64,000 nt of DNA, from positions 1 to 64,000 of IMG/VR virus record IMGVR_UViG_3300043777_000086; one strand, written 5' to 3'. The DNA comes from a virus. The notes under the pieces were generated by a model. The model ran no database searches, was not told the DNA's origin, and saw only the letters and a list, made by a program, of their open reading frames with translations. This document shows positions 3,734 through 54,700 of this stretch, piece after piece (position 1 is the stretch's first letter; each line of letters starts with the position of its first letter). A program made the position numbers and the translations under genes.

Positions 3734-4202
3734 ACCCCGTGTCTCGGACGACCAATTCGTGGCGCTCGTGCTCGAGCAGCGCGGGCGCTGGAAGGCGTTC
3801 GTTCAGGCGCGCGGGTTTGATGAAGCCACCGCCGACGATATCGTGTCGGAGGCCGTCCTGCGCGGGTACCGCTACCTGGGGGCGTTCCGCGGCGAGGCGA
3901 GCCTGCTCTCCTGGATGCTCACGATCATCCTGCGTGAGACGTACACCCACTTCCGGCGGGCGCGGTATCGTATACAAACGGAAAGCCTTGAGGATGAACT
4001 GGTCGACGGGGATACGCTCTCGCGGCCGGAAACGACTACGCGCGCCGCGCTTTTTTCTCAGGTTATGGTGCATGTGAAACGCTTGACGCGCGGAGAGCGT
4101 TTAGCGATCGCGTATTACCTGGATGGCTGGGATAAGCCAAGCCGGTCCGTCCGAGTTCGGAAGTTTCGAGCAGTGCAGAAGTTGAGGGAGAGGCTGTTGT
4201 AG
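3714..4202 (+). CDS. ECF-type sigma-70 family factor (region 4 shortened or degenerate)
   Basis: ADDIVSEAVLRGY..FRGEASLLSWML region 2; VRVRKFRAVQKLR resembles region 4. Confidence 0.8.
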   Translation: MAATATKPRVSDDQFVALVLEQRGRWKAFVQARGFDEATADDIVSEAVLRGYRYLGAFRGEASLLSWMLTIILRETYTHFRRARYRIQTESLEDELVDGDTLSRPETTTRAALFSQVMVHVKRLTRGERLAIAYYLDGWDKPSRSVRVRKFRAVQKLRERLL

Positions 4203-4232
4203 TTGTAGTTTGTTGGAGTTAGTAAAAATCAC

Positions 4233-4262
4233 TTGACAGAATGGTTCGAATCGGCGAAGATT
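4233..4262 (+). promoter_or_regulatory. putative sigma70 promoter
   Basis: Perfect TTGACA at 4233 in an AT-rich intergenic gap; weak -10. Confidence 0.45.
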
Positions 4263-4304
4263 TGTTGTCCACAAGAATTCACAACTCAGGAGAAAACACT
4301 AGAT

Positions 4305-5408
4305 ATGAATAAGGGAATGGAGTTATCGACTTGCGCTCGGGAAATCGCTAGGCAGCAAGGGTTGAAGCGAGACTTCCGGGCACCGGCGGCGCGCATGCGA
4401 ATGAGCGTGCTCTCGCCGGAACAGGAGCGTCAGTCACCGGATGGGTTCAAGATGCGCTTCGCGCTGAACCTGGATGGGCAAGCGCAGCCGTTCGCGGTCC
4501 GCAAGCTCGCCCACCAGCAGATCGCGGAGCGCGTCAAGGTGCCCTGGAATTACTATGAGCGCTGCATGTCGGAAGCGCCGGAACTGGTCACCGAGAACGT
4601 CAACCACTGGCTCACGCACTCTGACGACGTGCGGCTAGTGCGAACGCTCGACAGTCAAGCCAGGGCCTATCTTGGGGATAAGTACCGGCCGCTCGACAAC
4701 TACGACCTATTCACAGCCGTGGCGCCCACGCTCATGGGCGAGTCGGCGCGCGGCATGCGAATCGAGTCGATCCAGATCACCGAGACGAAGTTTTACATCA
4801 AGGCGTTCACCGACCGGATCACCGGCGAGGTCAAGAAGGGCGATGTCGTGCAGGCGGGCGTGGTCATCACGAATTCCGAGGTCGGACATGGGACGCTGGC
4901 GGTCGAGCCCAGCGTGCTCAGATTACTGTGTTTGAACGGTTTGACCGCAAACGACGCCTCTCTCCGCCGGCGTCACGTCGGCCGGGGTTCCGAGATCCAG
5001 GGAGTTGAAGAGTACTTTTCGGATGCCACGCAGCGCATTACAGACGAGGCTTTCTGGCGTCAAGTCAACGACGTTGTACGTGGGGCGTTTGATGAAATCA
5101 AGTTCAAATCCCTCGTCGAGAAAATGCAGGCGACTCTCGATAACCGGATTCCCGAGGGTGGAGCTACCCTCCAGGAAGTTTCAGAGGTCTTCCAGAAGCG
5201 CTACAGTTTGAGCGCCACCGAGGGCGATATGATTCTCAAAAATCTCATCTCCGGCGGCGATCTCAGCCACTACGGCATTGTCAACGCGATCACCGCGACC
5301 GCGAAGAATGGGGATCTTTCGTACCAGCGGGCGGATGAGTTGGAGCACATCGGTGGACAGGTTCTTGAGTTGTCCCGATCCGAGTGGAAGGAATTGATCG
5401 CCGCATAG
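4305..5408 (+). CDS. DUF932-like phage protein
   Basis: AHQQIA..RTLD..ARAYL..YRPLDN and NSEVGHG..RLLCLNG motifs; AGGAG RBS. Confidence 0.8.
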   Translation: MNKGMELSTCAREIARQQGLKRDFRAPAARMRMSVLSPEQERQSPDGFKMRFALNLDGQAQPFAVRKLAHQQIAERVKVPWNYYERCMSEAPELVTENVNHWLTHSDDVRLVRTLDSQARAYLGDKYRPLDNYDLFTAVAPTLMGESARGMRIESIQITETKFYIKAFTDRITGEVKKGDVVQAGVVITNSEVGHGTLAVEPSVLRLLCLNGLTANDASLRRRHVGRGSEIQGVEEYFSDATQRITDEAFWRQVNDVVRGAFDEIKFKSLVEKMQATLDNRIPEGGATLQEVSEVFQKRYSLSATEGDMILKNLISGGDLSHYGIVNAITATAKNGDLSYQRADELEHIGGQVLELSRSEWKELIAA

Positions 5409-5426
5409 CACCCGCGTCTGCGGGTA

Positions 5427-5455
5427 TTGACCCACACAAGGCTTAGATCCATGAT
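5427..5455 (+). promoter_or_regulatory. putative sigma70 promoter of the GIY-YIG gene
   Basis: TTGACC-17 bp-CATGAT. Confidence 0.55.
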
Positions 5456-5528
5456 GATTTCACCTGCCGACTCAATGTTATCGCGAGGAGTGAGGGTTGC
5501 CTTCAATGGCGACGGCAGGGATTTTATT

Positions 5529-6260
5529 ATGCTTATTTACAAGCTCACCAACACTGTCAATGGTAAGATCTACATCGGCCTGACTACTCAATCCCTGAGT
5601 GATCGCATGTGTGGCCATCGTAGAGCAGCGCGCAAAGGCTCACCTCAATTAATCGCTCGCGCTATCCGGAAATACGGATTCGAGGCGTTCACTGTTGAGG
5701 AAATCGCTACAGCGTCGAGCCTTGAAGAACTCAGATTTCTAGAGGTCTTTTACATAGCTGAGTCACGTAGCGCGGAACGCTCTAGGGGGTATAACAGATC
5801 ACTAGGCGGGGAGGGGGCTTTCGGCGTAAGGGATTCCAAGGCGACGCGCGCTAAGAAATCTGCCAGGATGCAGGGATTTAAACACTCCGAAGAAACTAAG
5901 GCTCTATTATCTAAGCTCGCCAAGGAGCGTGGCGCGTACAAGCAGTTGGTTGCTGGTACTAAACGCGCCTGGGCTGATCCTGAACGGCGCGCAGCATTAA
6001 CAGAGATGCGCAAGGGACGAACATGGAGCGATGAGACTCGAGCTAAGAGTATCGCGGCCAGAGTAGGGCAGAAGCATGGGCGGACGCTGCACACCATAAA
6101 GATGGAGGCACGAATGGCTATTGAGTGCGGCTCCCAGCATCGCACGGAAGTTTACATCAACGCTCGGACGGGAAAGATTTCGTGTGCCTTTTGCAGGAGA
6201 AGGACCGCCACGAGTTACAGGGAGAGGCGAGATTTCAGGGAACAGTTGTACAAACTCTAG
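5529..6260 (+). CDS. GIY-YIG homing endonuclease with NUMOD3-like repeats
   Basis: LIYKLTN..GKIYIG, RKYG, GYN motifs; HSEETKALLS and WSDETRAK repeats. Confidence 0.92.
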   Translation: MLIYKLTNTVNGKIYIGLTTQSLSDRMCGHRRAARKGSPQLIARAIRKYGFEAFTVEEIATASSLEELRFLEVFYIAESRSAERSRGYNRSLGGEGAFGVRDSKATRAKKSARMQGFKHSEETKALLSKLAKERGAYKQLVAGTKRAWADPERRAALTEMRKGRTWSDETRAKSIAARVGQKHGRTLHTIKMEARMAIECGSQHRTEVYINARTGKISCAFCRRRTATSYRERRDFREQLYKL

Positions 6261-6276
6261 GTCTCCGAGTGAGTGA

Positions 6277-6315: not shown

Positions 6316-6326
6316 ATGGAGGGAAA

Positions 6327-8364: not shown

Positions 8365-8753
8365 CTGACCCCAAGGAAATCGCCGCACGCATCGTTCAGC
8401 AATTCACTGGGTATATTGAACATCCCCTTCCGGGAGTGTTTCGTCTGCAAGGTTTGATCACAGAAGCAATCTCCGTGCGGGATGCCGAGCACGCAGAAAA
8501 TTTACGATGCTGCCCGAAGGCGTCTCATATTCATGATCTCCCATTACCAGAATCTTGTCCCGCATGTGAGGTTTTAGAATTGCGAGCTGCACAACGCGAA
8601 CTACTTGGTGCGCTGCGCGAGGTTCTAAAAGAATACGATCTGGGGTTCAAAATATCTACCCTAAATTTGCAATTCTACCGTGCGATGCTTGCTAAGTATC
8701 CGGAGGCGGCACAGACCACAAATTTAAAAGGAGAAAAAGATGGCAACACCTGA
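8361..8753 (+). CDS. hypothetical protein (MTDPKEIAARI...)
   Basis: GGAGG RBS, ATGA coupling. Confidence 0.6.
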   Translation: MTDPKEIAARIVQQFTGYIEHPLPGVFRLQGLITEAISVRDAEHAENLRCCPKASHIHDLPLPESCPACEVLELRAAQRELLGALREVLKEYDLGFKISTLNLQFYRAMLAKYPEAAQTTNLKGEKDGNT

Positions 8754-10413
8754 AGGACCAAAGACTGAGATTGTCGCAGCTACAGCGGCGACACCTGCCG
8801 CGGCGGCGCCGGCCTCGGTCCCGGATATCACCAACAAGACATGGTTCCGCGGGGTGCCCCCTGAGGACAAATTAAACCGCATGTACGGGTTCTCGAAGGC
8901 GATCTGCAACGCGGCATTCATCAGCCCTGTTGTGCGAGGCGACGAAGCCTCGGTTTTTTATTTGGTTTCAATGGCGGAGGATCTCGGGGCGCAATGGACG
9001 CACGGGCTTCGGTCGATCTACCCGCTCGTGAAGCGCGGCAAGGATGGTGATGGGGATCAGATCCGTGCCGGCATCCAGGGAGACCTGGCGCTGGCGCTGC
9101 TCCTTGGGCGTAAGTTCAAGGTCAAAATCAAGGAATCCACGGATGAGATAGCTACGGTCTGGATGCAGCGTCCGGACGAAACGATGGAGTTCGAGGACAG
9201 CTTCACGATCGCCGAGGCGCAGAAGTTGGGACTCACTAGCAAGCCTAACTGGGGCTACAAAAAAGACATGCTGCGCTGGAGGGCGATCATGCGAGTAGCG
9301 CGCATTGTGGCAGCGGATATATTGGGTGGCATGTACCTCCCTGACGAAATCGAGGGTCTCCCCGAGGAGCGCGGCGACGCGGGTAACGGGGCCTTCCGGG
9401 ACGAGGCTCAGCGCCAGCTTGATAACCCCTATACCGTTGGCCGCAAGACTACGGATGCGCCTGCTGCCGAGGTCGTAGTCGCGGTTAAGCCTTCCGAGAG
9501 TCCGAAGTCGGACGCGCCCGCAGAGCCCGAAAAGCGAGACAATACCAGCGCTACCCCGAGACCCGCCGAGACCCGCAAACCCAGCGCCCCTCCTGAGGTG
9601 CGTACCCCCAAGGCTCAGGACGACAAGGAGCCACCCCTATTCACGGAGACCGTACCGCCGGAGAAGATCAGCGATCCGGAGCCTGCGCCTGCCGCAGCGG
9701 AGCCGGGCGAGCCAGCCAAGGCCGACAAGTCCAAGTCTCCGATCCCCATCGACGGCAAGAAGACAGTCAAGGACATTCTGCTCGAGATGACGGACCTCCT
9801 GCCGACCGTGTCTCCCGAGACGCTTACGCGTAAGACCTTCCCGGAGTTCCTGCGCGGCTTCATGGGGCGCGATCTGAAGGGGCTCAAGAAGGAGCAGGTG
9901 GACCCGGCGCTAGCGATCCTTCCGCCCCTGCTGCGCGATTACAAGCCTCAGTTCCTACGCGACCCGCATGGGGCGGGCGTCATGTGCGGCGCCGGCTGGA
10001 ACAAGTTCGTCCGGTGGTTCGATGAATCCTGGCCGGAGGACTGCAAGCAACTGGCGATCTCGATCGGCGTCGAACGCTATTCGGACAGCGGCGGGTTTGA
10101 TCTCGCGGAGTTTCTGACGGACCCGGTAGACATCAAGAATATGAACCCCTCCGAGCTTCGGACGTTCATGCAGGTGCTCTCAAAGACCCGTGAGGCGATC
10201 CTGCTTAAGGACGCAGCAACGAAGTACGGCGTGTCGATGCTCGCGATTATGAACTCCTGGGATCTCGACATTTTGAATGCGGACGCCGCTACGGTTGAGG
10301 CGTGCCTGAAGAAATCCCTAATCGAAGGGATTGAAGGCGCTGCCGAGCCGGTGACGGCGGGTGTAGATCCGAATTCGGATGAAGACGATTTGGGTTTGTT
10401 CGATGAAGAGTAA
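8740..10413 (+). CDS. RecT-like single-strand annealing protein with a long Pro-rich linker and an extra C-terminal domain
   Basis: FTIAEAQKLGL..NW..KDMLRWRA..ARIVAADILGG motif; acidic C-terminal tip. Confidence 0.75.
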   Translation: MATPEGPKTEIVAATAATPAAAAPASVPDITNKTWFRGVPPEDKLNRMYGFSKAICNAAFISPVVRGDEASVFYLVSMAEDLGAQWTHGLRSIYPLVKRGKDGDGDQIRAGIQGDLALALLLGRKFKVKIKESTDEIATVWMQRPDETMEFEDSFTIAEAQKLGLTSKPNWGYKKDMLRWRAIMRVARIVAADILGGMYLPDEIEGLPEERGDAGNGAFRDEAQRQLDNPYTVGRKTTDAPAAEVVVAVKPSESPKSDAPAEPEKRDNTSATPRPAETRKPSAPPEVRTPKAQDDKEPPLFTETVPPEKISDPEPAPAAAEPGEPAKADKSKSPIPIDGKKTVKDILLEMTDLLPTVSPETLTRKTFPEFLRGFMGRDLKGLKKEQVDPALAILPPLLRDYKPQFLRDPHGAGVMCGAGWNKFVRWFDESWPEDCKQLAISIGVERYSDSGGFDLAEFLTDPVDIKNMNPSELRTFMQVLSKTREAILLKDAATKYGVSMLAIMNSWDLDILNADAATVEACLKKSLIEGIEGAAEPVTAGVDPNSDEDDLGLFDEE

Positions 10414-13591: not shown

Positions 13592-13782
13592 TGGCGATCC
13601 TCATCGGAGTTGCGGGGCTACTCGGGATGTGGGTACTCGTCTGCCTTGTGCTCGACGGCTACCCATCGATGGTAGACACCTGGGCACTGGCACTCAAGCG
13701 GCATGCCGCAAGCGTGCGTACGATGCAGAATAAGCGCTCGGCTGTGCTAGCCGAGGCGTGGATACGGGAGTTGGAAAAATGA
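13591..13782 (+). CDS. small membrane protein
   Basis: N-terminal hydrophobic segment. Confidence 0.6.
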   Translation: MAILIGVAGLLGMWVLVCLVLDGYPSMVDTWALALKRHAASVRTMQNKRSAVLAEAWIRELEK

Positions 13783-16806: not shown

Positions 16807-18591
16807 GTGCCTCTTCGCCCCTATCAGCGCGCGTGCCTCAAGTCCGCCCTGGCTGACTATCGCGCGGGCATCCGGCGGCAGTTATGGGTATTGCCCTGTG
16901 GGGGCGGCAAGACGGAGATCGTATCCCGGATCCCTGATCTCCTCAAGCAGCAGCGCGGCGAGCAGGGGATGTTCATCGTTAACCGGGACGACCTGGTCAT
17001 GCAGGCTGCTCGCACGTTCACACGGAACAATCCAAACCTGCGCGTGGGGATCGAGAAGGCCGAAGAGCACGCAGATCCGAACTCGGACATCGTGATTTGC
17101 TCGCTGCAAACTATCGGGAAGGTCGATGGCGTATCGCCGCGGTTTGCGCGCTTCGATGAAGAACGCGTGCGGTGGGTGGTGGTCGACGAATGCCACGCCG
17201 TCCTGTCGCTCCAGTACCTGCACGCGCTGCGGCACTTGAGGCTGAATAAAGCTGAACCTAATATCGACCATGGCAAACTCCTTGTCGGGATCACGGCAAC
17301 TCCCGATCGCAGCGACGGGGTTGGGCTTGAAGCGGTATTCGACAAGATCACATACGAGATCTCGATCCGCGAGCTGATGGAGGACGGTCCGGTCATCGAC
17401 GGGCGAATGTACAGCTACCTTGCGCCAGTGTTGGGGTATCGAGTCACGACGGACTTCGATGTTTCTATGGCTCGCACGCGTAAGGGAGACTTCCTCGAGC
17501 AGGATCTCAGCAACGCACTCGACAATCCAGAGCGCAACAAGCTAATCCTCGATCGCTACCTCGGATACGGGGAACGAATGCGGGCGATTGCATTTACGGT
17601 TAATGTGCAACACGCACACACCCTTACTGAGATGTTCCGCGCTCACGGGATCCCGGCGGTACCTGTCAGTGGGGATACTAAACGGGCTGAGCGCGATCGG
17701 ATCTATGCCGCGTTCGAGGCTGGCGACATTCGGATGATTGCGAGCTGCTCTGTCCTCCAAGAAGGGTTCGATGCTCCGGCCGCGTCGGTAGCTCTTATGT
17801 GCTCCCCGACTAAGTCGAGCCTGCGGTATCGCCAGTCGGTCGGACGGGTGCTCAGACGTTTCCCGTCCGTCGAGCGGATGACTGAAGGCGGATACGATGG
17901 CTGGGTAAAGCCTCACGCGATCATCATTGACTTTTGTGATCTCCTCGGGAGGCACTCCATCCAGTGTGCTCCGACCCTATTCGGGCTTAAGGCCGACTTC
18001 GACCTCGACGGAGGCAACGCGCTCGAGGCTGCTAAGGAAGTCCAGCAGGTCTTGCAGCGCTACCCCTCGATCCAGGACGCCAAGTCCATCAAGGAGCTTC
18101 GCGCCCAGGTGGATTCGGTGGACATCTTCCGGGCTCCGGTGGTCCGTCCCGACGTCCGCCGCTATAGCAAGTTCTCCTGGCTTGAGATACTGGATGGAGT
18201 GTTGCAGTTGAACACCAAAGCCTGCGCCTTGGAGGTGCGGGTCAACGCGCTTGGACGGCACGAGGTGTACCAGTCCGTGAACGGGATCCGCAGCCTAAAG
18301 GATACGGTCCCGGCGCTCCAGGACGCGCTCAGGATCGCAGACGCACTGGTCCCTAAGGATGAATGGGCGATCCATGTGACGCGTGCTAAATGGCGCGAGG
18401 AAGCCCCCACGGAGGCTCAGTGCTCCCGACTCCACCGCGAGGATGAGCGGCTTCGCAAGAAATGGTCTACACCTGGGGACTTCTACCGGTTTGCGATCAG
18501 CCAGCACGGGGCGGGAGATGTGAACTACTCGAAAGGCGCTTTATCGAGAATGATCGACCGCTACGTTTTGAGTAAGGCGGTACCAGCTTGA
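16807..18591 (+). CDS. SF2 DEAD/DEAH-box helicase
   Basis: LRPYQ, PCGGGKT, DECH, TATP, EGFD, QSVGRVLR. Confidence 0.95.
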   Translation: MPLRPYQRACLKSALADYRAGIRRQLWVLPCGGGKTEIVSRIPDLLKQQRGEQGMFIVNRDDLVMQAARTFTRNNPNLRVGIEKAEEHADPNSDIVICSLQTIGKVDGVSPRFARFDEERVRWVVVDECHAVLSLQYLHALRHLRLNKAEPNIDHGKLLVGITATPDRSDGVGLEAVFDKITYEISIRELMEDGPVIDGRMYSYLAPVLGYRVTTDFDVSMARTRKGDFLEQDLSNALDNPERNKLILDRYLGYGERMRAIAFTVNVQHAHTLTEMFRAHGIPAVPVSGDTKRAERDRIYAAFEAGDIRMIASCSVLQEGFDAPAASVALMCSPTKSSLRYRQSVGRVLRRFPSVERMTEGGYDGWVKPHAIIIDFCDLLGRHSIQCAPTLFGLKADFDLDGGNALEAAKEVQQVLQRYPSIQDAKSIKELRAQVDSVDIFRAPVVRPDVRRYSKFSWLEILDGVLQLNTKACALEVRVNALGRHEVYQSVNGIRSLKDTVPALQDALRIADALVPKDEWAIHVTRAKWREEAPTEAQCSRLHREDERLRKKWSTPGDFYRFAISQHGAGDVNYSKGALSRMIDRYVLSKAVPA

Positions 18592-22025: not shown

Positions 22026-22100
22026 GACGCCCCCTCCTGTACAATACTTGACCACAAAAATTTCAGGTTAAATTTGTCCGAGTTCGGACATGGAGGCTCT

Positions 22101-23893: not shown

Positions 23894-24296
23894 CTTTAAC
23901 GAAGAAACACTTGACTGGGGAATACAGCGGATGGACCGCATGAAGCACCTCAAGGGATTCCCGGCGCTCGACGTCGGCGTGGAGGCGGTCGCCGGGGCGC
24001 TGCTACGGATCGCACACCCGGTTATCGTAGAGGCCCGGCTGGACTGGGCGATCAAAGGCGGATCACTTGACGACTTTGATCCGAGTTCGGATATAATCAA
24101 CCCCGGTGCGGAGGCGCTTAGTTTAGTGACGCTAATCCACCCAAAGATAAAAACTCCCATTAATCCAATGATTTGGATGGTGGATATGGCGCTGGATAAG
24201 TACAACTGGTTCCCCGCCCCCATCGACCTACGCCGGATCTTTGTGGAGAAGTTCCCGCCGGCGGACGGGCAGGAACCGGCACCGGCGGAATACTGA
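23886..24296 (+). CDS. hypothetical protein, possible helicase loader or inhibitor
   Basis: Follows the initiator; WFPAPIDLR motif. Confidence 0.6.
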   Translation: MYNFNEETLDWGIQRMDRMKHLKGFPALDVGVEAVAGALLRIAHPVIVEARLDWAIKGGSLDDFDPSSDIINPGAEALSLVTLIHPKIKTPINPMIWMVDMALDKYNWFPAPIDLRRIFVEKFPPADGQEPAPAEY

Positions 24297-24434: not shown

Positions 24435-24598
24435 GATGGCTTTGTAGGCTCCTGGGGCACCGATGGGCGCGAACAACAATCCCACTACGATGCCTGCGCT
24501 GTCACGATGTCCACTGGGTATGCAAACGTTGCGGTTACAGCGAAATCACCACAGGATTCCGTTACTGGTACTGCCCAATCCATAATGGAAGTCACTAA
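24431..24598 (+). CDS. 55-aa Cys/His prophage protein (DUF1660-like CRLLGH..CKRCG)
   Basis: Translated manually; coupled to the acidic peptide. Confidence 0.6.
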   Translation: MRWLCRLLGHRWARTTIPLRCLRCHDVHWVCKRCGYSEITTGFRYWYCPIHNGSH

Positions 24599-24608
24599 GG
24601 GGACTTTT

Positions 24609-24851
24609 ATGGGGCTGCGTAAACCGTACGGGCTGCCGGGAGATCCGAGTTCGGATATCTTCTGGCCGGAGGTCTCCCGGTTTTATTCCGACTGCACCAC
24701 AGACGAACAGATGCTCAAGCAGCGAATTCGGAGGGCTTTTGAGAAACTTCATCTGGAGCACGAGGAGCACTTCGAGCTTGCTGAGCTTATCTATCAGAAA
24801 CTAAAACCGTTTGCTGTTATGCGGCAGACACCTAGAGGGCTCAATGACTGA
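24609..24851 (+). CDS. hypothetical protein
   Basis: AAGGGG RBS before ATG 24609. Confidence 0.55.
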   Translation: MGLRKPYGLPGDPSSDIFWPEVSRFYSDCTTDEQMLKQRIRRAFEKLHLEHEEHFELAELIYQKLKPFAVMRQTPRGLND

Positions 24852-25675: not shown

Positions 25676-27073
25676 GTGAGCCAACCCCGCAAAACCCACC
25701 AGCAATCCGCCGGCGACCTCGCCCTAGAAAAAGGTATGCCCGCTTCCCCGGAGATCGAGAAGATCATCCTTGGGGCGATCCTCATCAAGCCCGACTGCTT
25801 CGATGCGGTCAGGGGCCTGCTTGAGCCAGACGACTTCAGCACGGAGCGCAATCGCCGCTGCTACCGCCGAATGATCGACCTCAAGGAGCGCGGCGACCCG
25901 ATTGACAGGGTTATGCTCATGGATGAGCTTCAGCGGCATGGGGAGTTGGAGTCGGTGGAACTCTCCTACCTCATGGAACTCGACACCGACGTTCCTGAGG
26001 TCGTTGAGACCTCGCTCGCGACGTACTGCCGGTCGGTTAAGGACCGCTCCGGGTTACGGCAGATCATCTTCGCCGCCCGCGACCTGGCGAAGCAGGCGCT
26101 CGATGCGGTGGATAACCCGCAGATTTTGGTCGAGCAGGCCACGAGTGCCCTCCAGGACATCGCGTCACGCGTGCAGGTGCAGCAGGATGACGGCGGGCAG
26201 ACGGTCATGCAGGCTATAGAATCCTTCCCCGGAGGGCTAACAGCGTTCCTGGAACCATCAAGCAGAAAGTTGGGTCTGCCGACCGGGTACGATCGCCTGG
26301 ATGATATGCTCGGCGGGCTACATGACGGGGAGTTGATCGTGATCGCCGGGAGGCCGTCCACCGGTAAGAGTTGCTTTATGAGCAACATCGTAGAGCACTT
26401 GACGATCAGGAAGCGAAAGTACCCGGCGATATTCTCGCTTGAGATGTCCGCCGAGTCAATCCTCACGAGGATGATGTGCTCCGCCGGCCACGTGGACCAC
26501 CAGAAGTTTCGCGCCGGATACCTCAACAAGGACGAGCGCTATAAGCTACAGGTGGCCGTCGACCAGCTATCCGATGTCCGACTTCGGATTTATGACAAGG
26601 CCGGGATTCGGGCTCCGGAGTTGATCTCAACGATACGCCGCCTTGCGCGGGACGAGGGCTGTCACGCTGTATTTATTGACTACCTGGGCCTGATCGGATC
26701 CCACGAAAAGACCGAGAACAAGAATCAAGAGGTCAGTCGGTTGACGCGCGACCTGAAGCTCCTGGCTATGGAGTGTGAGATTCCGATCGTACTGTTGTGC
26801 CAGCTATCCCGAGCGCCTGAGCGCCGAGGGGGGTCTTTTCGCCCAATTCTGTCCGACCTGAGGGATTCGGGATCGATCGAGCAAGACGCCGACACCGTGC
26901 TGTTTATCTTCAGATCCGAACTCTACAACCGGGATCGCGAGGACTACAAAGGCAAGGCGGAGATCATCATTAGCAAACAGAGGAATGGACCTGTGGGTTC
27001 CGTTCCGCTTAGGTTTCTATCGCACCTGATGCGGTTTGAGAACGCAAGTGCGGATGACGAGCCCGCCTCATGA
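25676..27073 (+). CDS. dnaB: replicative DNA helicase
   Basis: AGRPSTGKS, FSLEM, IDYL, QLSR, LSDLRDSGSIEQDAD, KQRNGP. Confidence 0.97.
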   Translation: MSQPRKTHQQSAGDLALEKGMPASPEIEKIILGAILIKPDCFDAVRGLLEPDDFSTERNRRCYRRMIDLKERGDPIDRVMLMDELQRHGELESVELSYLMELDTDVPEVVETSLATYCRSVKDRSGLRQIIFAARDLAKQALDAVDNPQILVEQATSALQDIASRVQVQQDDGGQTVMQAIESFPGGLTAFLEPSSRKLGLPTGYDRLDDMLGGLHDGELIVIAGRPSTGKSCFMSNIVEHLTIRKRKYPAIFSLEMSAESILTRMMCSAGHVDHQKFRAGYLNKDERYKLQVAVDQLSDVRLRIYDKAGIRAPELISTIRRLARDEGCHAVFIDYLGLIGSHEKTENKNQEVSRLTRDLKLLAMECEIPIVLLCQLSRAPERRGGSFRPILSDLRDSGSIEQDADTVLFIFRSELYNRDREDYKGKAEIIISKQRNGPVGSVPLRFLSHLMRFENASADDEPAS

Positions 27074-27077: not shown

Positions 27078-27407
27078 ATGTGGACAAGATGCGCGTATTG
27101 CGATATTCTGGTTCGGTCTGAAGGCACAATAAATCCGAACTCGGACATGCAATCCACCACCCTAAAGGAAACGATGCTTCAGATGCTAGAGGAGGCCCGC
27201 ATCGAAGTCGAACGCGGCCGGCTGGAGTCTCTGGCAATCTTCTCTCGCCGAACTAATGGATCCCATGTCCAATGGTTTACCTGCGAGCCTGACGCGGATA
27301 TCTGTTCGCTGTACGGGTTCGCGCTCGTGGCGCTCCAGCGCTCAGTCGAAGTCAAGAGCGAAACCGAGATCCGTCCGACCGGATCGAATAAAGGAGATGT
27401 TCAATGA
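27078..27407 (+). CDS. hypothetical protein (true start may be 27174)
   Basis: AAGGA before ATG 27174. Confidence 0.6.
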   Translation: MWTRCAYCDILVRSEGTINPNSDMQSTTLKETMLQMLEEARIEVERGRLESLAIFSRRTNGSHVQWFTCEPDADICSLYGFALVALQRSVEVKSETEIRPTGSNKGDVQ

Positions 27408-39065: not shown

Positions 39066-42000
39066 CGACCACCTGTCCCTTTACGTTGTACACCTCCGGC
39101 AGGGGCTGCGCTCTCTTGCGCTGCGTGCCCAAGTACTTGCGCCATTCCTGGATGATCGCGCGAGGGCTCAGCTTATTCGAATCGGCAACCTTGAGGATAA
39201 TGTTGGCCGCCTCTATATCGTTGGATTTCATGGCTGAAATATAGGCTTCTTTTGCGCGAGTATAGCTGAGTCCCTGCCTCGTCGGTAGACCGGCCACATT
39301 AAATAGCATGCTCGCCCCGCCCGGCATCGGGTAGAGCTGGGAGAAACGCTTATCGTTGATAGCCCTGATGGGATCCCTGGCGGAGAAGGGCACGAACATC
39401 GGAAGCGCCAACTCCATGCGTTGAATGTTCTTCTGGAGGGGGGTGCCGTACTTATCGACGTACTCGAATCCGGTTACGGGATCCACGCCGTACGCCGCGG
39501 CTCCGGCCGCCTGTACCGGCCCAGAGAGGGCGTTCATCATCCAGTCGTGCGGGTCCATGGCGAGCTTCACTGGATCCGTAAGGCCCTTTCCCCAGTTGAC
39601 ATACCGCTCGGATCCGTTCGGCATGTAGCCCATCGGAATCGCGAAGGAGTTGGATGTCAGCCCGGTGTCGTGACTCCCGAACCTAATCGGCACTCCCGGA
39701 TTGTCCCAGGTGAAGTGCCCGCCCTCCTTGCCGTTCTTGTCCTTGTTCTTGAAGATCGAACTCGATAGATACGATCCAACCTGCATACTGAGGAACCAGG
39801 TCAGAGCCGCGCCGCGAGCATAATTCGTAGCGACCTCCCGGCCGAGCGACCCCTCAAACGCCTGAGTGAATACCCGAAGGTTTGAAATCTTCCATCCAGG
39901 CGCAAGAAAGATCCAGTTCATCATTTGGGCGACCTTGGGGTTGACGAGCATTTTCTCCCAACTGATGGCTCCGTATGCGTCGTTCACCTGGGCGGCCACG
40001 GCGCGCTTGATCGCCGTAACCTCCGCAGGAGTTCGCGGCTGGGCGCGCTCGATCATACTCGACACTCCGGATTCGTAGGAGTGCGCCATATTGGCCGGCA
40101 AATAGAAATCCCATAGAGACTTCTCGATCACGTGGTTCATGTGCCCCATGGCGCGGATGGGGGCCGTCACGGCCTTCTTCCATCCGGTCTGGTCCTTGCC
40201 CATGTTCTGCATGAAATTACGTGAAGATCGTTCGGCATCATCGATCTCTAGGCGCACGCCGTGATGCAGCATGTCGCGAACAAAATCCGAGTTCAGTCGG
40301 AAGATCGGAAGCTCATCGCCCTTGCCTTTGCCTATCACTTCCGCGATGCCTGTACGTGCGCCCTTGTAGATTTCAGGATCCGCGAACCACCATCTCGTGA
40401 GACCCTTGAGGGCTCCGGATGTAGATGCCGTCATAGCCTGGGACTGCTCGGTGATCGCCCAGTTGTGGAATAGTGAACCATAGAGGTTTAATCTCTTCCC
40501 AAATGAACGGACCTGGTCGATGGTCTTGAACGCAGGGGAATTGAATCGGCTTCCGAAGATTGCCTTTGCGGCCATCGCCATCTGGGGGTGAACGTACACC
40601 GGCTGGTAGCGATAGAAGGACTTTTCGATACGAACGTCCTTGCCGCGGATCTGCTTGATCTCTTCCTCTGAGGCTTGGAATGCCGCGCGGTTCAGTGCCG
40701 GGGCATCGTCTAACTTTACCCAGTCATCCAAATGGAGCGCGTTCTTCTGCTGCTCGGTGGCGACTGCTCCGATGTCATTTAGAGTGTTAGCCATCCTCTG
40801 GTTGGCAATGACGCGCGTCAGGTAGTTCCAGCGTACGCGTACGACGTCGAGGACGTCATTGTACTTAGGGACCCATCCGGCCTTGATGCCAGCCTCGTAG
40901 TCCTCGAACACCTTTTGTTTTAGGAAGCGATCGTGCATCAGCGTCTGTGCTGCGCGACCAGCCGGAGTTCCGCGGTTGGGCATCTCCCAGATCTGAGTCA
41001 GGTACTCATTGGGATCGGCCAGTTGCAGATCATTGCCGTAGTACTGCTTCAGAAGATTAGCGGATTCGTGATTTAGCTTCTGAATCACCTCAACGGCCTG
41101 CTGGCCCTTCGGCGACAAAGAGCTTTTGGGGGCAGTGCCCTGGATGACCGCCGCCATCTGGTTAGTGGGCTCTGGCTTGCCGTCAGCACCCATTTTGTAG
41201 ATGGTGCGCTCCTCCGCTGGAACAGATTCCTTAATTGGATGGAGTACGCTTTCAACCCGGAACTTATTCTCAGACTCAAATGCAGCTCGGTCCTCGACAA
41301 AATCCTTAGAGATGGACACCAACTCCGGGGTCTTTATATGAAGCATACGGGCTACGTCGCCCACAATCGGAGTCTGATGAACCGCGTCGAGTTTGAGCTT
41401 CTTCTCCCAGAATCCCTTGGGCGCAGCGATCTCATTCAGGACGTCGACTTTACTCTCAAGGATCTTGGTAGCGCTTGGGGGTTTGTCGCCCTCTTCGGTG
41501 TACGGCGCCGTACTCTTTAGGCGCTCCACTGCCTCACGGCGTCCGACTTCGGATTTTGCGCGCTCCCCCACGGACTCCTTGAGCCTAGCCGCTGCGGCAG
41601 GCGCTTCGATCTTCTCGATCGTCTTTGCCCCTTTGACGCCCGAGTACGCTTGGGCAAGGGCCACAACCACATGCGAGAGGTTCTCGGGACGAGGATCGTC
41701 CCTGTAAGCCTTAAGCGCATCCACAGCCTGCTTCCCCGCAAAGGCCGTGAATCCATAGTCGAGGATCGGCGCGAAGCGTCTCGTCTGCGGAGTAACGTGT
41801 AGCGTGATAAGCCCGATACCGGCCGGGGAGGTCATGAAGTCCAGCGCGCCAGGGGCCGCCTTGTAGGTTTCCGCCAGGAACCGGGAGATATAGTCCCCCT
41901 CATGGGACTGCCGCACAGACTCGGGGATAATGGCTTCGAGCGCTTTACGGAACCCAGAGTCTTCGTAGCGTTCCGAAAACCCCTTACCGCCTCCAATTGT

Positions 42001-46999: not shown

Positions 47000-47010
47000 T
47001 ATGATACCCC

Positions 47011-47039
47011 TTGACGATGACGGTATACTCGTCCACAAT
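47011..47039 (+). promoter_or_regulatory. putative sigma70 promoter, possibly leaderless transcript
   Basis: TTGACG-17-CACAAT, 8 nt before ATG 47048, no RBS. Confidence 0.5.
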
Positions 47040-47047: not shown

Positions 47048-47707
47048 ATGACCCCCATCCGTCGCGCCCTCGCTGCTATCTCCCGCTTTGTCCGAGTTCG
47101 GATCTTTAGGCGTCCGGAACCTCCGATCGTAGAGCGGCCACCTGACGGCGCGATCGTATTCCCAGAGCTTCCCTCAAGTAGAGCGCTTGAAGAGTATGGA
47201 TCCGGAACTCAGGCGGTGGCTATCAGCACACTTCCTCGGCCGCCGATATCTGACCTCATTCCGCTTAGGCCGGCGTCCTGTCTCTATGAGGTCACCTTCC
47301 AGCCACGGCCGTACTGGCTATTCGACTCGATCCACCTAACGGCTATCTGCGGGTCCGCGCTGCGGGTGATCGCGTTCCATGAGGACGTTTCGCACTGCAT
47401 CTTCCAGGTGACCGTCACTCCGATCCCGATGCAGCTCGACCACGCGATGCTATTGGGGTTGCATCGCGCGCGGGCAGAGGCGCCAGTCACGCTACGGATT
47501 GAGAGCCGGGTTACGTTTGAGGTCTACGAACTCCGCGCCACCTACCTGCGACCGGACTTCCGGCGCGAGCAGGCTTCGGACGGGACGATGATGCTGGTGT
47601 TCAACGACCCGTTCTACAAACCGATAGCCGAATCCGAATTCGGATTACTTCCCTCAGCGCCGCACCACCGCAAGATCTACGGACCCGGCGCGGACGTGGG
47701 GTACTAG
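47048..47707 (+). CDS. antisense-oriented hypothetical protein with a nozzle-repeat-like beta-sandwich
   Basis: Fills an otherwise empty gap; has its own promoter. Confidence 0.7.
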   Translation: MTPIRRALAAISRFVRVRIFRRPEPPIVERPPDGAIVFPELPSSRALEEYGSGTQAVAISTLPRPPISDLIPLRPASCLYEVTFQPRPYWLFDSIHLTAICGSALRVIAFHEDVSHCIFQVTVTPIPMQLDHAMLLGLHRARAEAPVTLRIESRVTFEVYELRATYLRPDFRREQASDGTMMLVFNDPFYKPIAESEFGLLPSAPHHRKIYGPGADVGY

Positions 47708-49424: not shown

Positions 49425-50033
49425 CTACACTCCTAATTGAGTTGCAAACTTCCACCAGTTTCCATCTGACCGTCCGACGAACAAGTAAAAGTTCTTTTGG
49501 TTTGCGGCATTCCCTATGTCATTAACTGACGTGTTTTTTAGATGTGAATCCCAGGTAATCTGATCCCCGTCAGTTCCGTCACAGGTTAGCACAATGAGAA
49601 GTAGGGCGGCGACCGTTGGGGAGATAGACGCTACGATGTTCGTGGTCGAGCTATGAGATAGTGCAATCTCCTGGAGGGTAAGACTGCCGCTACCGCCACC
49701 TCCTCCGCCGCCACTGCCGCCACTGGGAAAAGGCACTGGATTCTGGCTGAGCGCTGTATTTACCAACTGATTACTCGATCCGAACAGCTTCTGTGCGGCG
49801 ATAAGCGTCAGTAGCGCAAGCGGGTTGGTCGGGACCGAATCGTCCTCGGAGAAGAAATCCGGAGCCGTCACGGTATTCCCAAGGGTGATCGGGCCTGTAC
49901 CGCCCTGTACCGATGCGATCTGCTGCGCCAGGAAGTTCAGAACGTAGTTTAACTGGAATAGTTCAGGATCTTGAAGGTCTTGCGGCGTGATCCGTATATT
50001 GACGCCCTGCTGCTCTACGGTGGGCATCTTCAA
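49425..50033 (-). CDS. tail-associated adaptor or short fibre
   Basis: Downstream of the nozzle gene; poly-Gly hinge; C-terminal beta domain. Confidence 0.6.
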   Translation of the reverse strand: MKMPTVEQQGVNIRITPQDLQDPELFQLNYVLNFLAQQIASVQGGTGPITLGNTVTAPDFFSEDDSVPTNPLALLTLIAAQKLFGSSNQLVNTALSQNPVPFPSGGSGGGGGGGSGSLTLQEIALSHSSTTNIVASISPTVAALLLIVLTCDGTDGDQITWDSHLKNTSVNDIGNAANQKNFYLFVGRSDGNWWKFATQLGV

Positions 50034-53000
50034 TTCACCTGCGGCTGCGTCAACTCAGACCACTTGAATTCCGCATACGATGCACGCTGCTGCCCTGAGA
50101 GCGGCAAGGACTCGACTCGGCTACTATCGGCGTAGATCTTAAACGGCGTGACCCCGTCGATCGAGGTCACCACGATCCGGTATACCTTGCTCTTGTTGTA
50201 CTGACCGTTCGCTTGATCCGGAAGGAAGAACCGTTCAATGTCCCGGTCGGCGTGCGCCGGTAGCTCCACCTGATAGAAAAGCGCATCGCCAGCCACGTAC
50301 ACAGAAACCACGATTGCCGCCGCGCATAGATACTCCACCCACATCTGCCGGATCACCTTGAAGCCGACGTAGCCAAGGGTGTTCTCGTAAAGGTCTAGGA
50401 TCGTGCGGTAGCACGGCTCATTCCAGACGTCGTAGGTGACCTTGAAGATCTGAGCTTTCCCTCCGGAGCCTGGAGTTGGTATCATCCGTGCGAGGCGCCC
50501 GATCAGGTTTGAGTTGCAGGTCAGAATCCTAACTCGATCCACGTCGGTGGTTGTGATTGTCCAGGTCTGGACAATTGACCCATCCAGTTCTAGTTGGAGC
50601 TGGCAGGCTACCCCGCCCGTATCGATATCCACTTCGATCCCGCGCCAAACCTTCTCGCACTTCCATCCATTATCGGACCACTCGGTTGCCGGTACGATGT
50701 CGGGCGGATAGTCGATCTTGGTAAAGGTGTACTTCCATACGCGCAGTGAAACGGTGGTCGATTGCGGGTAGATCCGAACCATCTTTACGATCGTGTCGAT
50801 TGTGATCGAGAACGACTGCTTGCAGCGCCCGGTTCCAGATAACACGAAGGATTGTACGGCCGTATTCAATGTGCTGCCCTGCACTCCGGTGACGGTATCC
50901 ATTAGCATAGTGGTCGTGGTGCCCCCGGTATCGTACTCAAACGAGACTGTTATGAGGCGCTTGTCGAACGGACTCCCGAGATCGTCGTAATCAAACGAGT
51001 GGTCGACCGCGGCCTTATCGGCAGGCATCGTCACGAAACTCGCCCCCCACAACTGGAACATGCCGTTCGTGGGGACCGTGCCCAGTAGAATCCGCGCCTT
51101 GCGCCCCATGATATCCGGATTGAGGGTGATCGTCACGTCGCGGGTATTTAGGGTTGCGGTGACGGTAACGGTTTGTACGATTGTGCCGTCGACCTCGATC
51201 TTGACGGGAATTGCGATGCCATTGGTATTCACATCCAAAACGAGCTGTTGGAAGTATTTCTCGAACGGAGATTTGCTATCGTCGTACTCCGTGAAGTTTA
51301 CGATGTCCGGTGGGTAGTTCTCGGCCTTGATCTGATAACCGAAGATCTCGAAGTTTGTGGTGGTTGTCTGGGCGCGCAAGCGCAACTTCTTGGCGATGAT
51401 CCCGTCTATGATCGCAAACTCTTGCTGTGACCGATCCGCGCCGGAGATCTGGAGCGTTTGGACTGCGAGTGTCTGTGTGTTCCCTCCAACGCCTCCGATT
51501 ATGTCCAAGAACAAGTCGATCGCCTGCCCGTACGTATTGTAGTCTAGGGTGATCGCGTAGATTCTCTTATCCCAAGGGTGTCCGTTGTCCTGCCAATCCG
51601 TGATCCGGCCTCGCTGAAGTTCAGCGAGGGGGATGTAGGTCATCTGAACAGAAAAGATCTGGACTATTCCGATTGAGCTGCCAGTGAACTGAATAGCAAA
51701 AACTCGGGCCTCTTTACCAAATACAGTTCCGCCCGACACGCCAAGCTGCAACGGTACGAAGCGTCGGTTAGTAGTCGCAGTCAGGGTGAATTGATCTACC
51801 GGATCGAGAGTCCCGGAGTAATCGTAAAATAAGCCAACCGTGACCGTGTCATGGGGGTTGCTTAATTCAACCAGCAGCTCCACGTATTGCTTATTGAGGG
51901 CTCGTCCCTCCGGGGCCATAATCCCAGTTGTGCCGCTCCATACGATCGGATTTCCGCTATTCGGGGCACCCGTGTAATGATCCGAGGTTCCCATCTCAAG
52001 CAGATGAAGCTCGGAGGTTCCGGGACCGTTTAGGAAGATTGCTCCAACGAGGCGCCCGGTGTCCTTCTCAACCATCATGGATGTTAACGCACCCTGCGCG
52101 GCCACGCTTGTGTAGACCACCGGCTCCCAGCGTTTGTAGATCAGGCTGTAGCGGAGTTGATTGATCAGATTCGACGTGTCCCGGTAGCTTAGGTACACGT
52201 AGTTATCGAATGATTGAATGAATATCTGATCCAGTTGAGTGAAGTCGATCGGATTGAGCCCCTCCGCCCCTATGCCTACGAAAATAAGGTCAAGATCCTC
52301 AGTGACCTTAACGCACCCGCCGCCGGCCCAGGCGTAGATGCCGTCGTAGGAAACGAACCAGATCTGATTGTTGACCTTGCACCACAGGTGCTTTCCGATC
52401 ATCCCGCGGTCTGCTGGCGTCTCGGTGATGTTCAGGAACTGACCGAGCCAGATCTGGAAGATGAAGATTGATTTCAGATTGAGCGAGACGTATCCGCCGC
52501 CGTAGTCCAACAGACCCATGATCGGGTTGTCGGGGCTACCGATGATCTGCTGGTGGGAATTCCCGGTCTCCAGATTTATGATCGGCCACTCTCCGGGATA
52601 TCCGGCCTTGGACCGGTAGCAGATATGCGGGTTGTTGACGTCACCGGCGAGTAGTAGGCTGTTTCCTGCCTGGCACACAATATCGCAAGGCTGCCCGATT
52701 CTTACGCCGCAGGTGAGGGTCTCGCCCACGAAGTGTTGATTCTGGAGCCACACCTGCACGAACCCAAGTCCGACCGAGAATACATTGGCGATCTCCTGAT
52801 TGGATCCGGATCCGATCGTAAGCTGGGATCCGACCGTGAAATATAGGTGTGCGGATCCACCGATGTCTACCGAGTAAAGATTCGGATACGGATTGGATCC
52901 TCCGACAGGAGTCGGGGCTATCCCTAGCGTGGTGTTTAATGGCGTCGGCAGAGAACTCGCTACGGGTGGGTAATTGTCCACCTCAAGCTCGTCGTTACCG

Positions 53001-54700
53001 GCAATTAGCAGATCCGGGAAATTATCCACAAAGGTGGCGGTGAGCGGGAACCCATTGGAGTCCACACCCGGATTAGTGGAATACCCCAGGAACCTGAAGA
53101 GTCCGTCTGCGAACGTGCCTCCAGCGCGATACACAGCGATCGACCCGAATCCCGTTAGCGCAGGATTCCCGGTGGCACTATTATCGAAACCGTAGACTGT
53201 TACCTGTACAGCCCTGAGCTGCACGGTCACCATGTTCTGGGTGGCCATGTATGGGCAGGGGTTACCCATCTCGCCGGTCACTGGATTGCGGAGGATGTAC
53301 ACGTATTGATACGGCAATGCCGCCGCATCGGTGACATTGTCAGGCCCCTGCGCGCCATGTGCGTAGATCGCTCCGACTTCTACTGAGAACGCCGGCGAAC
53401 CCGTCACGGTCGCCGAGAGCGCCCACACCTGCACCCCGGTAACCTGCTTCCAGGAAAACGGACCATTCCCGGCGTTGCCCACCGGCAGGAAGTCGCTCTT
53501 GGCGATGTCGAACTCCATCCATACCGGGGCGGCCTGCGGGGCGATCTGGATAGGCTCCAACTGAGATCCGAACTCGGACGGGAAGATAACGTTTCCGATT
53601 GATCCGGCGGTGATCGCCGCCGCCACGGCCGCCTGGATCTGGGCTGCCAGGGTGGCGTTGTTGACGTAGGTCTGCACCGAGGAGGGCGCCACAGCCTTCA
53701 GGTAGTAGTCTGTATGCGAGCCGTTCACCAAAACCTGGATGTTGAGCTGCGTGATGTATGCCGGGTTTGAAACCCAAAGTCCGATATGCACCAGGTCGTC
53801 GCTCGAGTAACCGTCGTCGGGGCTCCCGGTAAACGACCAATCGACGCTGTTGTCCCACTCTCCGTAGTAGTTACTTCCGTTGGCGGTGAGCGTCGGAGCG
53901 GATCCGCCGGTCGAGGTCAGGTTTACAAGTTGGTAATACGAAACGATGGATCCGGTTGGAATGACTGTAGAGTACACATTAAAGGTGGTGGCGGTGATCG
54001 TGTCAACGAGCCCAAGCACCCCGTTCATGTACAGGTACATGCCGCTCAGGATTCCGTTCATGGACGACGGCGTAACCTGAAAGTAGTCCTGGCTGATCTG
54101 TGTCGCGCTTGTGACGGTCGGAGATCCGCTGAGCCGGTTAGACCCTCCGATCTGCGTCGTGAGGATCACGTATCCGGGATTCCCTGGCAGGGCTGGGTTT
54201 GTTGGCGTAGCCGTCGCCGGGAATAGCGCGGCCGTGATTCCCCATGGATAGAGTTGGGTGAATGTTCCGTTATCCCACCGCATAGCAGTGGCCTGAGCAA
54301 AGAAGATGTACGGGGTGCCTGATGTCCCTGAGTTAAACGTAGCCGACTCCCAACGCGAGGTCGGTAGTGATGAAGGAGCTAGGAAGGTGGTGGCGTATGT
54401 GTTCACGGTTGTGAACGTCGTGTACGGCCCCGTGCAGCGCCTCATCAAGGAGCCATCCCCGCAGTAGCGTGGATCAGTGGCGTCGTTGCCAAGGGAGAGC
54501 TTGGCAAGCGAGTGGATCACACCCAGAGGCGTATTGGCCGTGAACATCTGGGATCCCCGGCGCGGCCCGATAGCCCCCTCTTGTAAGCTAGTCAGGTTTA
54601 TGGTCGAGGAAAAAGCGCCCTCGGGCAGCAGGGCCGGCTCTTGCTTGAGGTTGACCCCTTTGAAGATTAAGGGGAAAGCCTTGTTTTTGGTCTCGGCCAT
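50030..54700 (-). CDS. tail nozzle / tubular protein B-like (stabilisation protein) with repeated C-terminal beta-sandwiches
   Basis: FKGVN..GAIGPRRG N-terminus, propeller-like region (WFVSYDGIYAW), upstream of GNAT and ejection genes. Confidence 0.7.
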   Translation of the reverse strand: MAETKNKAFPLIFKGVNLKQEPALLPEGAFSSTINLTSLQEGAIGPRRGSQMFTANTPLGVIHSLAKLSLGNDATDPRYCGDGSLMRRCTGPYTTFTTVNTYATTFLAPSSLPTSRWESATFNSGTSGTPYIFFAQATAMRWDNGTFTQLYPWGITAALFPATATPTNPALPGNPGYVILTTQIGGSNRLSGSPTVTSATQISQDYFQVTPSSMNGILSGMYLYMNGVLGLVDTITATTFNVYSTVIPTGSIVSYYQLVNLTSTGGSAPTLTANGSNYYGEWDNSVDWSFTGSPDDGYSSDDLVHIGLWVSNPAYITQLNIQVLVNGSHTDYYLKAVAPSSVQTYVNNATLAAQIQAAVAAAITAGSIGNVIFPSEFGSQLEPIQIAPQAAPVWMEFDIAKSDFLPVGNAGNGPFSWKQVTGVQVWALSATVTGSPAFSVEVGAIYAHGAQGPDNVTDAAALPYQYVYILRNPVTGEMGNPCPYMATQNMVTVQLRAVQVTVYGFDNSATGNPALTGFGSIAVYRAGGTFADGLFRFLGYSTNPGVDSNGFPLTATFVDNFPDLLIAGNDELEVDNYPPVASSLPTPLNTTLGIAPTPVGGSNPYPNLYSVDIGGSAHLYFTVGSQLTIGSGSNQEIANVFSVGLGFVQVWLQNQHFVGETLTCGVRIGQPCDIVCQAGNSLLLAGDVNNPHICYRSKAGYPGEWPIINLETGNSHQQIIGSPDNPIMGLLDYGGGYVSLNLKSIFIFQIWLGQFLNITETPADRGMIGKHLWCKVNNQIWFVSYDGIYAWAGGGCVKVTEDLDLIFVGIGAEGLNPIDFTQLDQIFIQSFDNYVYLSYRDTSNLINQLRYSLIYKRWEPVVYTSVAAQGALTSMMVEKDTGRLVGAIFLNGPGTSELHLLEMGTSDHYTGAPNSGNPIVWSGTTGIMAPEGRALNKQYVELLVELSNPHDTVTVGLFYDYSGTLDPVDQFTLTATTNRRFVPLQLGVSGGTVFGKEARVFAIQFTGSSIGIVQIFSVQMTYIPLAELQRGRITDWQDNGHPWDKRIYAITLDYNTYGQAIDLFLDIIGGVGGNTQTLAVQTLQISGADRSQQEFAIIDGIIAKKLRLRAQTTTTNFEIFGYQIKAENYPPDIVNFTEYDDSKSPFEKYFQQLVLDVNTNGIAIPVKIEVDGTIVQTVTVTATLNTRDVTITLNPDIMGRKARILLGTVPTNGMFQLWGASFVTMPADKAAVDHSFDYDDLGSPFDKRLITVSFEYDTGGTTTTMLMDTVTGVQGSTLNTAVQSFVLSGTGRCKQSFSITIDTIVKMVRIYPQSTTVSLRVWKYTFTKIDYPPDIVPATEWSDNGWKCEKVWRGIEVDIDTGGVACQLQLELDGSIVQTWTITTTDVDRVRILTCNSNLIGRLARMIPTPGSGGKAQIFKVTYDVWNEPCYRTILDLYENTLGYVGFKVIRQMWVEYLCAAAIVVSVYVAGDALFYQVELPAHADRDIERFFLPDQANGQYNKSKVYRIVVTSIDGVTPFKIYADSSRVESLPLSGQQRASYAEFKWSELTQPQVN

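Follow-up and report, generated by a model that had tools for sequence, protein, structure and literature searches.

What function could be served by one and the same palindrome that a phage carries between its genes as well as inside unrelated ones? This question is raised by a stretch of 64,000 nucleotides (IMG/VR virus record IMGVR_UViG_3300043777_000086, positions 1 to 64,000), hereafter called the window, in which an initial annotation made from the sequence alone had pointed out dispersed copies of the word RTCCGA-NN-TCGGAY and had read them as candidate operators, parS-like or nucleoid sites for a dimeric protein that coats the genome. The source record is the complete 106,152-bp genome of an uncultured phage with direct terminal repeats, and the window is its first 64 kb. 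This phage is labelled G000 and its relatives from IMG/VR are labelled G001 to G015. We find that the palindrome is a real and strongly selected cis-element that occurs throughout the clade. As for its function, we assign a probability of roughly 50% to the reading that the palindromes are sequence-specific docking sites in duplex DNA for a phage-encoded dimer, that the reader is most likely a 238-aa helix-turn-helix (HTH) protein, and that some of the sites gate gene starts.

Each of the 14 window positions listed in the initial annotation does carry the core TCCGA-NN-TCGGA (Table 1), compared to 0.15 copies expected by chance (100 dinucleotide shuffles, with a largest shuffle count of 2). 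The whole genome contains 21 copies, which makes the core by far the commonest gapped palindrome with 5-bp arms (any unrelated word reaches at most seven copies). Twelve of the 14 window copies extend to R...Y, the exceptions being those at 4150 (an A follows) and 4875 (a T precedes), and the spacer composition is as had been described (GT/AC in eight copies, CT/AG in three, AT in two and GG in one). Genome-wide, the centre is GT/AC in 12 of the 21 sites. Pooling of the halves yields the half-site W-W-R-TCCGA-R, with the flanking purine present in 40 out of 42 halves. Copies with one mismatch do exist as claimed, but the four starts reported for them were one base early (the true starts are 1488, 14125, 36753 and 59043). 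With four extra ones at 12109, 12312, 26570 and 43466, the window holds eight one-mismatch copies versus approximately 3.4 expected, a weak excess.

The copies reside in unrelated genes and in all three reading frames, where they encode VRVR, DPNSD/DPSSD or SEFG/SEVG, so that the earlier description of their coding context stands. When synonymous codons were permuted with all proteins and the codon usage left intact, in-gene copies averaged 0.79 (500 synonymous shuffles, largest count 5), compared to 16 observed, which means that the word is maintained at synonymous positions. Even spacing of the sites was rejected, as the distance from one to the next varies between 542 and 15,886 bp; five gaps are shorter than 900 bp, versus about 3.4 expected by rough arithmetic, and five copies fall within 22–27 kb, as had been noticed. 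One copy beyond the window, at genome position 101353, lies within a longer inverted repeat, CGGCGTCCG ... CGGACGCCG (genome about 101330-101385).

Conservation was assessed in relatives collected from IMG/VR by terminase and portal searches. They form a large clade with contigs of roughly 100 kb and portal identities of 26–76%, and their words were found by scanning whole contigs for over-represented paired words. A 14-bp layout is kept in G001, G002, G003, G005–G009 and G015, with lineage-specific inner bases. The word reads RTCCGANNTCGGAY in G000 (21 copies), GTCCGRATYCGGAC in G001 (17 copies), GTCCAGATCTGGAC in G002 (9 copies), GTCCA-N4-TGGAC in G003 (8 copies), GTCCAGTTCTGGAC in G005 (6 copies), GTCCMACGTKGGAC in G006 (14 copies), GTCTGKATMCAGAC in G008 (12 copies) and CTCCAWATWTGGAG in G015 (19 copies in 54 kb). 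G009 combines GTCCAGATCTGGAC with a form whose centre is one base shorter (15 copies), and the word of G007, GTMMAATATTAGAC, is asymmetric (11 exact copies). The common frame is xTCC-N6-GGAx, a 14-bp unit in which one helical turn separates the outer blocks and each lineage has its own six inner bases. Even the close relatives G000 and G003, whose TerL and portal proteins are 73–76% identical, differ in their word. In relatives of G008 at about 90% identity, all tested copies are unchanged, including one located in a flank that is only 75% identical. A distant branch (G010–G013) carries another dispersed word with a GCTTGCA core, represented by ATGCTTGCAT in G010 (10 copies), ACGCTTGCAG in G011 (11 copies) and CACGCTTGCA in G013 (7 copies). 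A separate observation concerns G001, in which approximately 16 copies of a 27-bp tandem repeat (~75500-75920) lie inside the open reading frame (ORF) 75291-76331; the repeat unit contains TCCGGTGGCGGA, which fits the TCCG-N4-CGGA core of the clade and may be a coincidence.

Positions are kept at several genes while the word changes, as appears from gene clustering across ten genomes. In a tail-fibre-like gene, the site is situated 42–59 nt into the gene in G000 (genome 77955), in two G003 paralogues and in G006, and the fibre-gene copy of G001 occupies the same aligned position. A site is found just upstream of the portal start codon in G002, G008 and G009. Two further genes carry one at their 5' ends, namely the capsid gene (G001, G015) and dnaB (G007, G008). 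Sites deeper inside genes recur as well, specifically ~530–600 nt into the terminase gene (TerL) of G001, G007 and G009, and 274 nt (G000) and 280 nt (G009) into a helicase gene. The site in the fibre protein falls in the signal peptide, where the peptide follows the DNA word (FVRVRIS, FVHGWTS, MSGFGHA) without an indel, and where the site even puts two arginines into the hydrophobic core. The sites in DnaB, the helicase and other proteins arose by substitution, given that the protein alignments contain no indels at the sites. A mobile micro-element (REP/MITE-like) was rejected on the same ground and for the lack of homology between paired-site segments.

With respect to gene borders, 28 out of 102 sites in eight genomes (simple gene calls) are intergenic, compared to 9–15% non-coding sequence. 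The 30 nt before a predicted start codon contain 26 out of 145 site centres, versus 4.1% of random positions (~4-fold), and all other distance bins from start codons are near random. G015 was also left out of the start test because its 3' arm is itself GGAG; without it, 21 out of 127 centres still lie at most 35 nt before a start, versus 4.7% at random (p about 5e-7). The enrichment holds with longest-ORF starts. The initial annotation had placed one copy directly before the ribosome-binding site of the first gene of the replication operon, which is correct for the copy at 22077, and G001 likewise has a copy before the orthologue of this HNH gene. In other genomes, an A-rich stretch of 8–11 nt leads from several gene-start copies to the ATG, and no Shine-Dalgarno match is seen there (G002 2405, 13892 and 44321; G009 38275; G008 26371); the genes of G000 have clear GGAGG sites.

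The association with promoters is weaker. Sigma-70-like promoters coincide with nine out of 145 sites (6%), versus 3.2% at random (p about 0.05), and a classical operator at such promoters was rejected as a general explanation on this basis. Two copies, at 27134 and 47091, had been described as lying just downstream of putative promoters; sigma-70-like matches are indeed found there, yet such matches are no commoner than in shuffles. Individual sites overlap a -35 hexamer (genome 69453), occupy a 17-nt promoter spacer (G001 12127) or lie between a consensus promoter and a ribosome-binding site (G006 75610). The orientation of the asymmetric centre relative to transcription shows no significant bias (26 vs 16 in four genomes), and the G007 word is oriented about evenly (about 5 vs 5).

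Sites in such positions could also be read in the transcript. An RNA hairpin in the leader or early coding region might then act as a translational operator, processing site or stability element through an RNA-binding protein. Indeed, the majority of word versions fold into hairpins (5–8 bp, -5.7 to -11.5 kcal/mol for the symmetric words), the enrichment is directly before start codons, and the 3' arm of the G015 word is a GGAG at Shine-Dalgarno distance. A perfect palindrome moreover gives identical RNA from both strands, so that missing polarity is compatible with RNA, and as the gene-start copies share one orientation in G001 (6/6) and G007 (4/5), there is room for an RNA or promoter-linked role of this subset. 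Nonetheless, the stems are invariant within a genome and show no compensatory changes, half-site variants create C-U or A-G mismatches instead of wobble pairs, and some copies are located in promoter spacers. The asymmetric G007 word is equally exact, although it hardly folds into a hairpin at all (-0.4 to -1.3 kcal/mol). Invariant stems, mismatching variants and the equal conservation of a hairpin-less word favour a reading in duplex DNA, and we consider the RNA explanation unlikely.

For duplex DNA, the dimeric protein proposed in the initial annotation is still the best reading, given that the sites are exact and two-fold symmetric, with GTCC/GGAC blocks spaced by one helical turn. At ~1 per 5 kb, the sites are too sparse to coat the DNA by themselves. 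The dimer is further supported by the retention at synonymous positions, the lack of polarity and the conserved lineage version without a hairpin. We infer that each subunit would read one outer GTCC-type block, and that the sites would jointly form a genome-wide regulatory network of ~20 sites per 100 kb. A subset is positioned immediately before, or ~40–50 nt into, key genes (heads of replication operons, portal, capsid, fibre). Our best guess is that a dimer bound there could gate expression by blocking RNA polymerase in a roadblock- or operator-like manner, while the remaining in-gene sites may act at a distance or may merely be tolerated.

The clade-wide outer GTCC block implies a conserved protein, and candidates were followed by running family profiles on six-frame translations of the relatives. 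The most likely reader is the dnaB-linked 238-aa HTH protein. Each of the seven near-complete genomes with the 14-bp motif encodes a member of its family, and in every genome the gene adjoins dnaB or is located at most 3.4 kb from it. In G000, the operon that contains it is headed by the copy at 27134. In the structure model (mean pLDDT 79), the protein consists entirely of helices and has a predicted helix-turn-helix at residues 82–110. The putative recognition helix reads SRSTMYE in G000, SRTDAYA in G001, SRTTCFE in G006, SRQTCFE in G007 and SRPEAWN in G008, and it is identical (SRSNLYE) in G002 and G009, which have one word in common. These two are the closest pair for the 238-aa protein (40% identity, all other pairs at most 36%) but not for the adjacent DnaB (35%), for which G009 shares 42–43% identity with G000 and with G007. 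In G010 and G011, where the word has the GCTTGCA core, remote homologues of the protein carry PRSTWY in this helix. This suggests that the recognition helix of the protein tracks the motif. The initial annotation had named two HTH candidates in the window, of which the product at 27675 is backed by comparative genomics and the product at '25071' is not: the latter (25038-25400, DnaA_C-like HTH) was rejected as reader, as it has no homologue in any relative. The sigma factor encoded at 3699 was dismissed for want of a homologue in motif-bearing relatives. Tentatively, and with less assurance than for the docking sites as such, one may picture an orphan HTH family, with no detectable ParB clamp domain and always linked to dnaB, that runs the site network in this large clade of roughly 100-kb uncultured soil phages, with protein and site co-evolving into private words at the same genes.

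Several points weigh against the docking of this protein. About 70% of the sites are inside genes and have no evident target, and with promoters at 6% of the sites versus 3% of random positions, most copies lack support for acting as classical operators. Seven genomes underlie the link between helix and motif, common ancestry confounds it, and the helices of G006 and G007 are alike although their inner words differ. Fold and family searches with the 238-aa protein gave nothing significant, the weak rows being ParB DNA-binding domains (Z 4.0–4.5), SopB and P1 ParB (Foldseek E about 5), and a weak DUF3102 match in 16–23% of the members of nearby Atlas clusters. Further relatives were found neither in ten more contigs nor in single-protein and sub-alignment scans of viral and metagenome contigs, and a large protein database holds only eight members of the family, on contigs of at most 6.7 kb. 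The linkage to dnaB could point to a role in replication, and other small, fast-evolving DNA-binding proteins could have been missed.

Other readers can be envisaged for the same sites. Outside the window, G000 encodes a ParB-like protein (genome 94437-95207) next to a HerA-like ATPase, and the palindromes could be its parS- or OB-like loading sites, from which a KorB/Noc-like clamp would serve silencing or partition. This protein has a ParB-like N-terminal domain (GxxRxxA-type DGAHRFLAA) together with a helix-turn-helix, and KorB itself uses dispersed 16-bp operators both near to and far from promoters (PMC11790492). However, the family profile of the G000 protein finds no homologue in two nearly complete genomes that bear the motif, namely G002 (94% complete, syntenic locus covered, 9 motif copies) and G008 (96% complete, 12 motif copies), and on this account the protein was rejected as reader. 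Pfam ParB_N matches nothing in G002 and G008 either, although the same model misses the gene of G000 itself, and among the proteins scanned neither a ParA nor a KorA partner turned up. The parS-like reading of the initial annotation is thus disfavoured and now looks distinctly unlikely. An equivalent docking mechanism with a 71-aa ribbon-helix-helix-like protein (genome 93539-93754, beside the packaging genes) as reader accords with homologues in G001, G002, G003, G004, G005, G008 and G009, with none found in G010, which has a different motif, and with copies at most 200 bp from the gene in G000, G001 and G003. Yet this protein goes undetected in the motif-bearing G006 and G007, its putative DNA-reading strands differ between G002 and G009 (PLQVRV vs LVFGRV) despite their shared motif, and its fold, in the absence of a Pfam match, is deduced from the sequence pattern only; we regard it as a very unlikely reader.

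The least probable proposal, in our judgement highly improbable, is that a host protein reads the sites, with the phage mimicking a host regulatory word, or that they are targets of a nuclease or recombinase or tiny mobile elements. Recombination between the repeats of Cluster O mycobacteriophages has made indels (PMC4351075), and two copies bracket the orphan ORF 47048-47707 in the window. On the other hand, the different words of the close relatives G000 and G003 would require repeated changes of host, the segments between paired copies share no homology, and the copies in conserved proteins came by substitution rather than insertion.

Table 1. Palindrome copies in the window, the candidate reader and other annotated features of G000 (window positions unless stated otherwise).
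Feature	Positions	Strand	Sequence	Context
Palindrome copy	4150..4161		TCCGAGTTCGGA	41 nt before stop of sigma-factor-like gene 3699-4202
Palindrome copy	4875..4886		TCCGAGGTCGGA	Inside DUF932 gene 4233-5408; encodes SEVG, also protein-conserved in G002
Palindrome copy	9501..9512		TCCGAAGTCGGA	Inside RecT-like gene 8740-10413
Palindrome copy	10368..10379		TCCGAATTCGGA	34 nt before stop of RecT-like gene 8740-10413
Palindrome copy	17076..17087		TCCGAACTCGGA	Inside helicase gene 16807-18591, 274 nt from start
Palindrome copy	22077..22088		TCCGAGTTCGGA	Ends 3 nt before GGAGG, followed by ATG 22101 of HNH gene heading replication block
Palindrome copy	24080..24091			Between TTGACG and TATAAT (19-nt spacer), inside ORF 23886-24296
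Palindrome copy	24644..24655			Inside ORF 24507-24851
Palindrome copy	26577..26588			Inside dnaB (25676-27073); no indel there in protein alignment
Palindrome copy	27134..27145			Intergenic after dnaB, 25 nt downstream of sigma-70-like match 27081-27109
Palindrome copy	41542..41553			Inside large minus-strand gene 39055-42228
Palindrome copy	47091..47102			52 nt downstream of sigma-70-like match 47011-47039; 43 nt into orphan ORF 47048-47707; 53 nt upstream of minus-strand gene 46328-47038
Palindrome copy	47633..47644			Near other end of orphan ORF 47048-47707
Palindrome copy	53567..53578			Inside 1556-aa gene 50030-54700
238-aa HTH protein (candidate reader)	27675-28391	+		Predicted HTH helices at residues 82-93 and 98-110; all-helical
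Sigma-factor-like gene	3699-4202			Sigma70_r2, PHROG 1740
HNH-AP2 gene	2770-3255			Homing-endonuclease-like, early/replication region
GIY-YIG gene	5427-6260			Homing-endonuclease-like, early/replication region
HNH gene	22074-22739			Homing-endonuclease-like, early/replication region
HNH gene	28334-28789			Homing-endonuclease-like, early/replication region
OB-fold and HD-domain gene	13758-14696			Early region; weak Cas3_HD match
TnpB gene	20399-21571			OrfB_IS605 with Cas12f1-like TNB domain
Orphan ORF	47048-47707	+		219 aa, within minus-strand block
24-bp tandem array	1-487 and genome 106032-106152			~25 copies across both record ends; contained in ORF 22-996

The majority of the G000 proteins have no family match. 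Those that do include DnaB, a second helicase, a RecT-like protein, a DUF1376 protein, the sigma-factor-like protein, terminase, portal, several HNH and GIY-YIG endonucleases and one TnpB. A megablast search of window positions 20–30 kb against the phage collection returned no match. TnpB has homologues of 51–66% identity in G005 and G006 and therefore appears to be mobile among these phages, and the AP2-HNH genes occur in several copies in relatives. The orphan ORF, for which neither a family nor a homologue in the relatives was found, lies between two palindrome copies that are 542 bp apart; three other site pairs are spaced 557–725 bp, and their inter-site segments have no shared homology. 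The ORF around the 24-bp tandem array weakly matches the C-terminal beta-helix of T4 gp5, and the array probably encodes an octapeptide-repeat spike rather than iterons, for which reason it was set aside as a binding platform. G015 encodes (L142:6613-15480) a 2955-aa protein with a ddrB-like ParB domain and a ResIII helicase domain, which resembles giant multi-domain proteins that are injected by some phages.

Dispersed palindromes as a kind of feature have been described in other phages before. The nearest counterpart is the 17-bp dyad repeat TGTTCGGNNNCCGAACA of Cluster O mycobacteriophages, present in 34 copies in Corndog (Cresawn et al. 2015, PMC4351075). Its arms are invariant, its A/T-rich centre is unoriented and few copies are at promoters; 14 copies are intergenic, 10 are near gene 5' ends and 10 are inside genes, and its authors proposed a dimeric protein as reader (PMC4351075). 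Both systems combine invariant arms with a variable, preferred and unoriented centre and very few one-mismatch copies, and both comprise tens of copies genome-wide in short gaps, at gene 5' ends and in gene interiors, with few at promoters. The phage lineage, the word and the arm length are unrelated, however (here, arms of 5–6 bp and a centre of 2–4 bp), and in the present clade the layout is traced over deeply diverged lineages with their own words, kept positions and one candidate reader. A second parallel is KorB of plasmid RK2, a dimeric ParB-family CTPase clamp that works with KorA and exerts global control through its OB operators (PMC11790492). These, too, are nearly identical palindromes dispersed over a mobile genome, some of them close to promoters and others far away (PMC11790492). 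Here, by contrast, the only ParB-like gene is absent from motif-bearing relatives, and the candidate is a 238-aa protein without a detectable ParB N-terminal domain.

Stoperators of Cluster A mycobacteriophages (L5) are dispersed too: ~30 exact sites, many of them in short intra-operon gaps, at which the bound repressor blocks the elongating polymerase. Each stoperator is asymmetric and follows the direction of transcription, and its reader is the immunity repressor of a temperate phage. The sites described here differ in being dyad-symmetric and unoriented, and no integrase or CI/Cro-type repressor was found among the ~75 G000 proteins scanned, with many small ORFs remaining matchless. The operators of phage 434 are 14 bp long (ACAA-N6-TTGT) and occur as two clusters of three beside cI and cro. 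They share the 4-N6-4 layout with fixed outer bases, and their central bases tune recognition by a helix-turn-helix dimer; by contrast, the present sites are scattered singly across 106 kb.

If an orphan HTH family does run the network in co-evolution with its sites, the clade would amount to a series of natural specificities of a global phage regulator of a new type. The clade makes the question testable, as many deeply diverged lineages use one layout with different words, as the recurrence of copies at the same genes is strong enough to prescribe the residues of a signal peptide, and as there is a single best candidate protein. The seven natural protein-site pairs could reveal both the reader and the recognition code of the 238-aa family.

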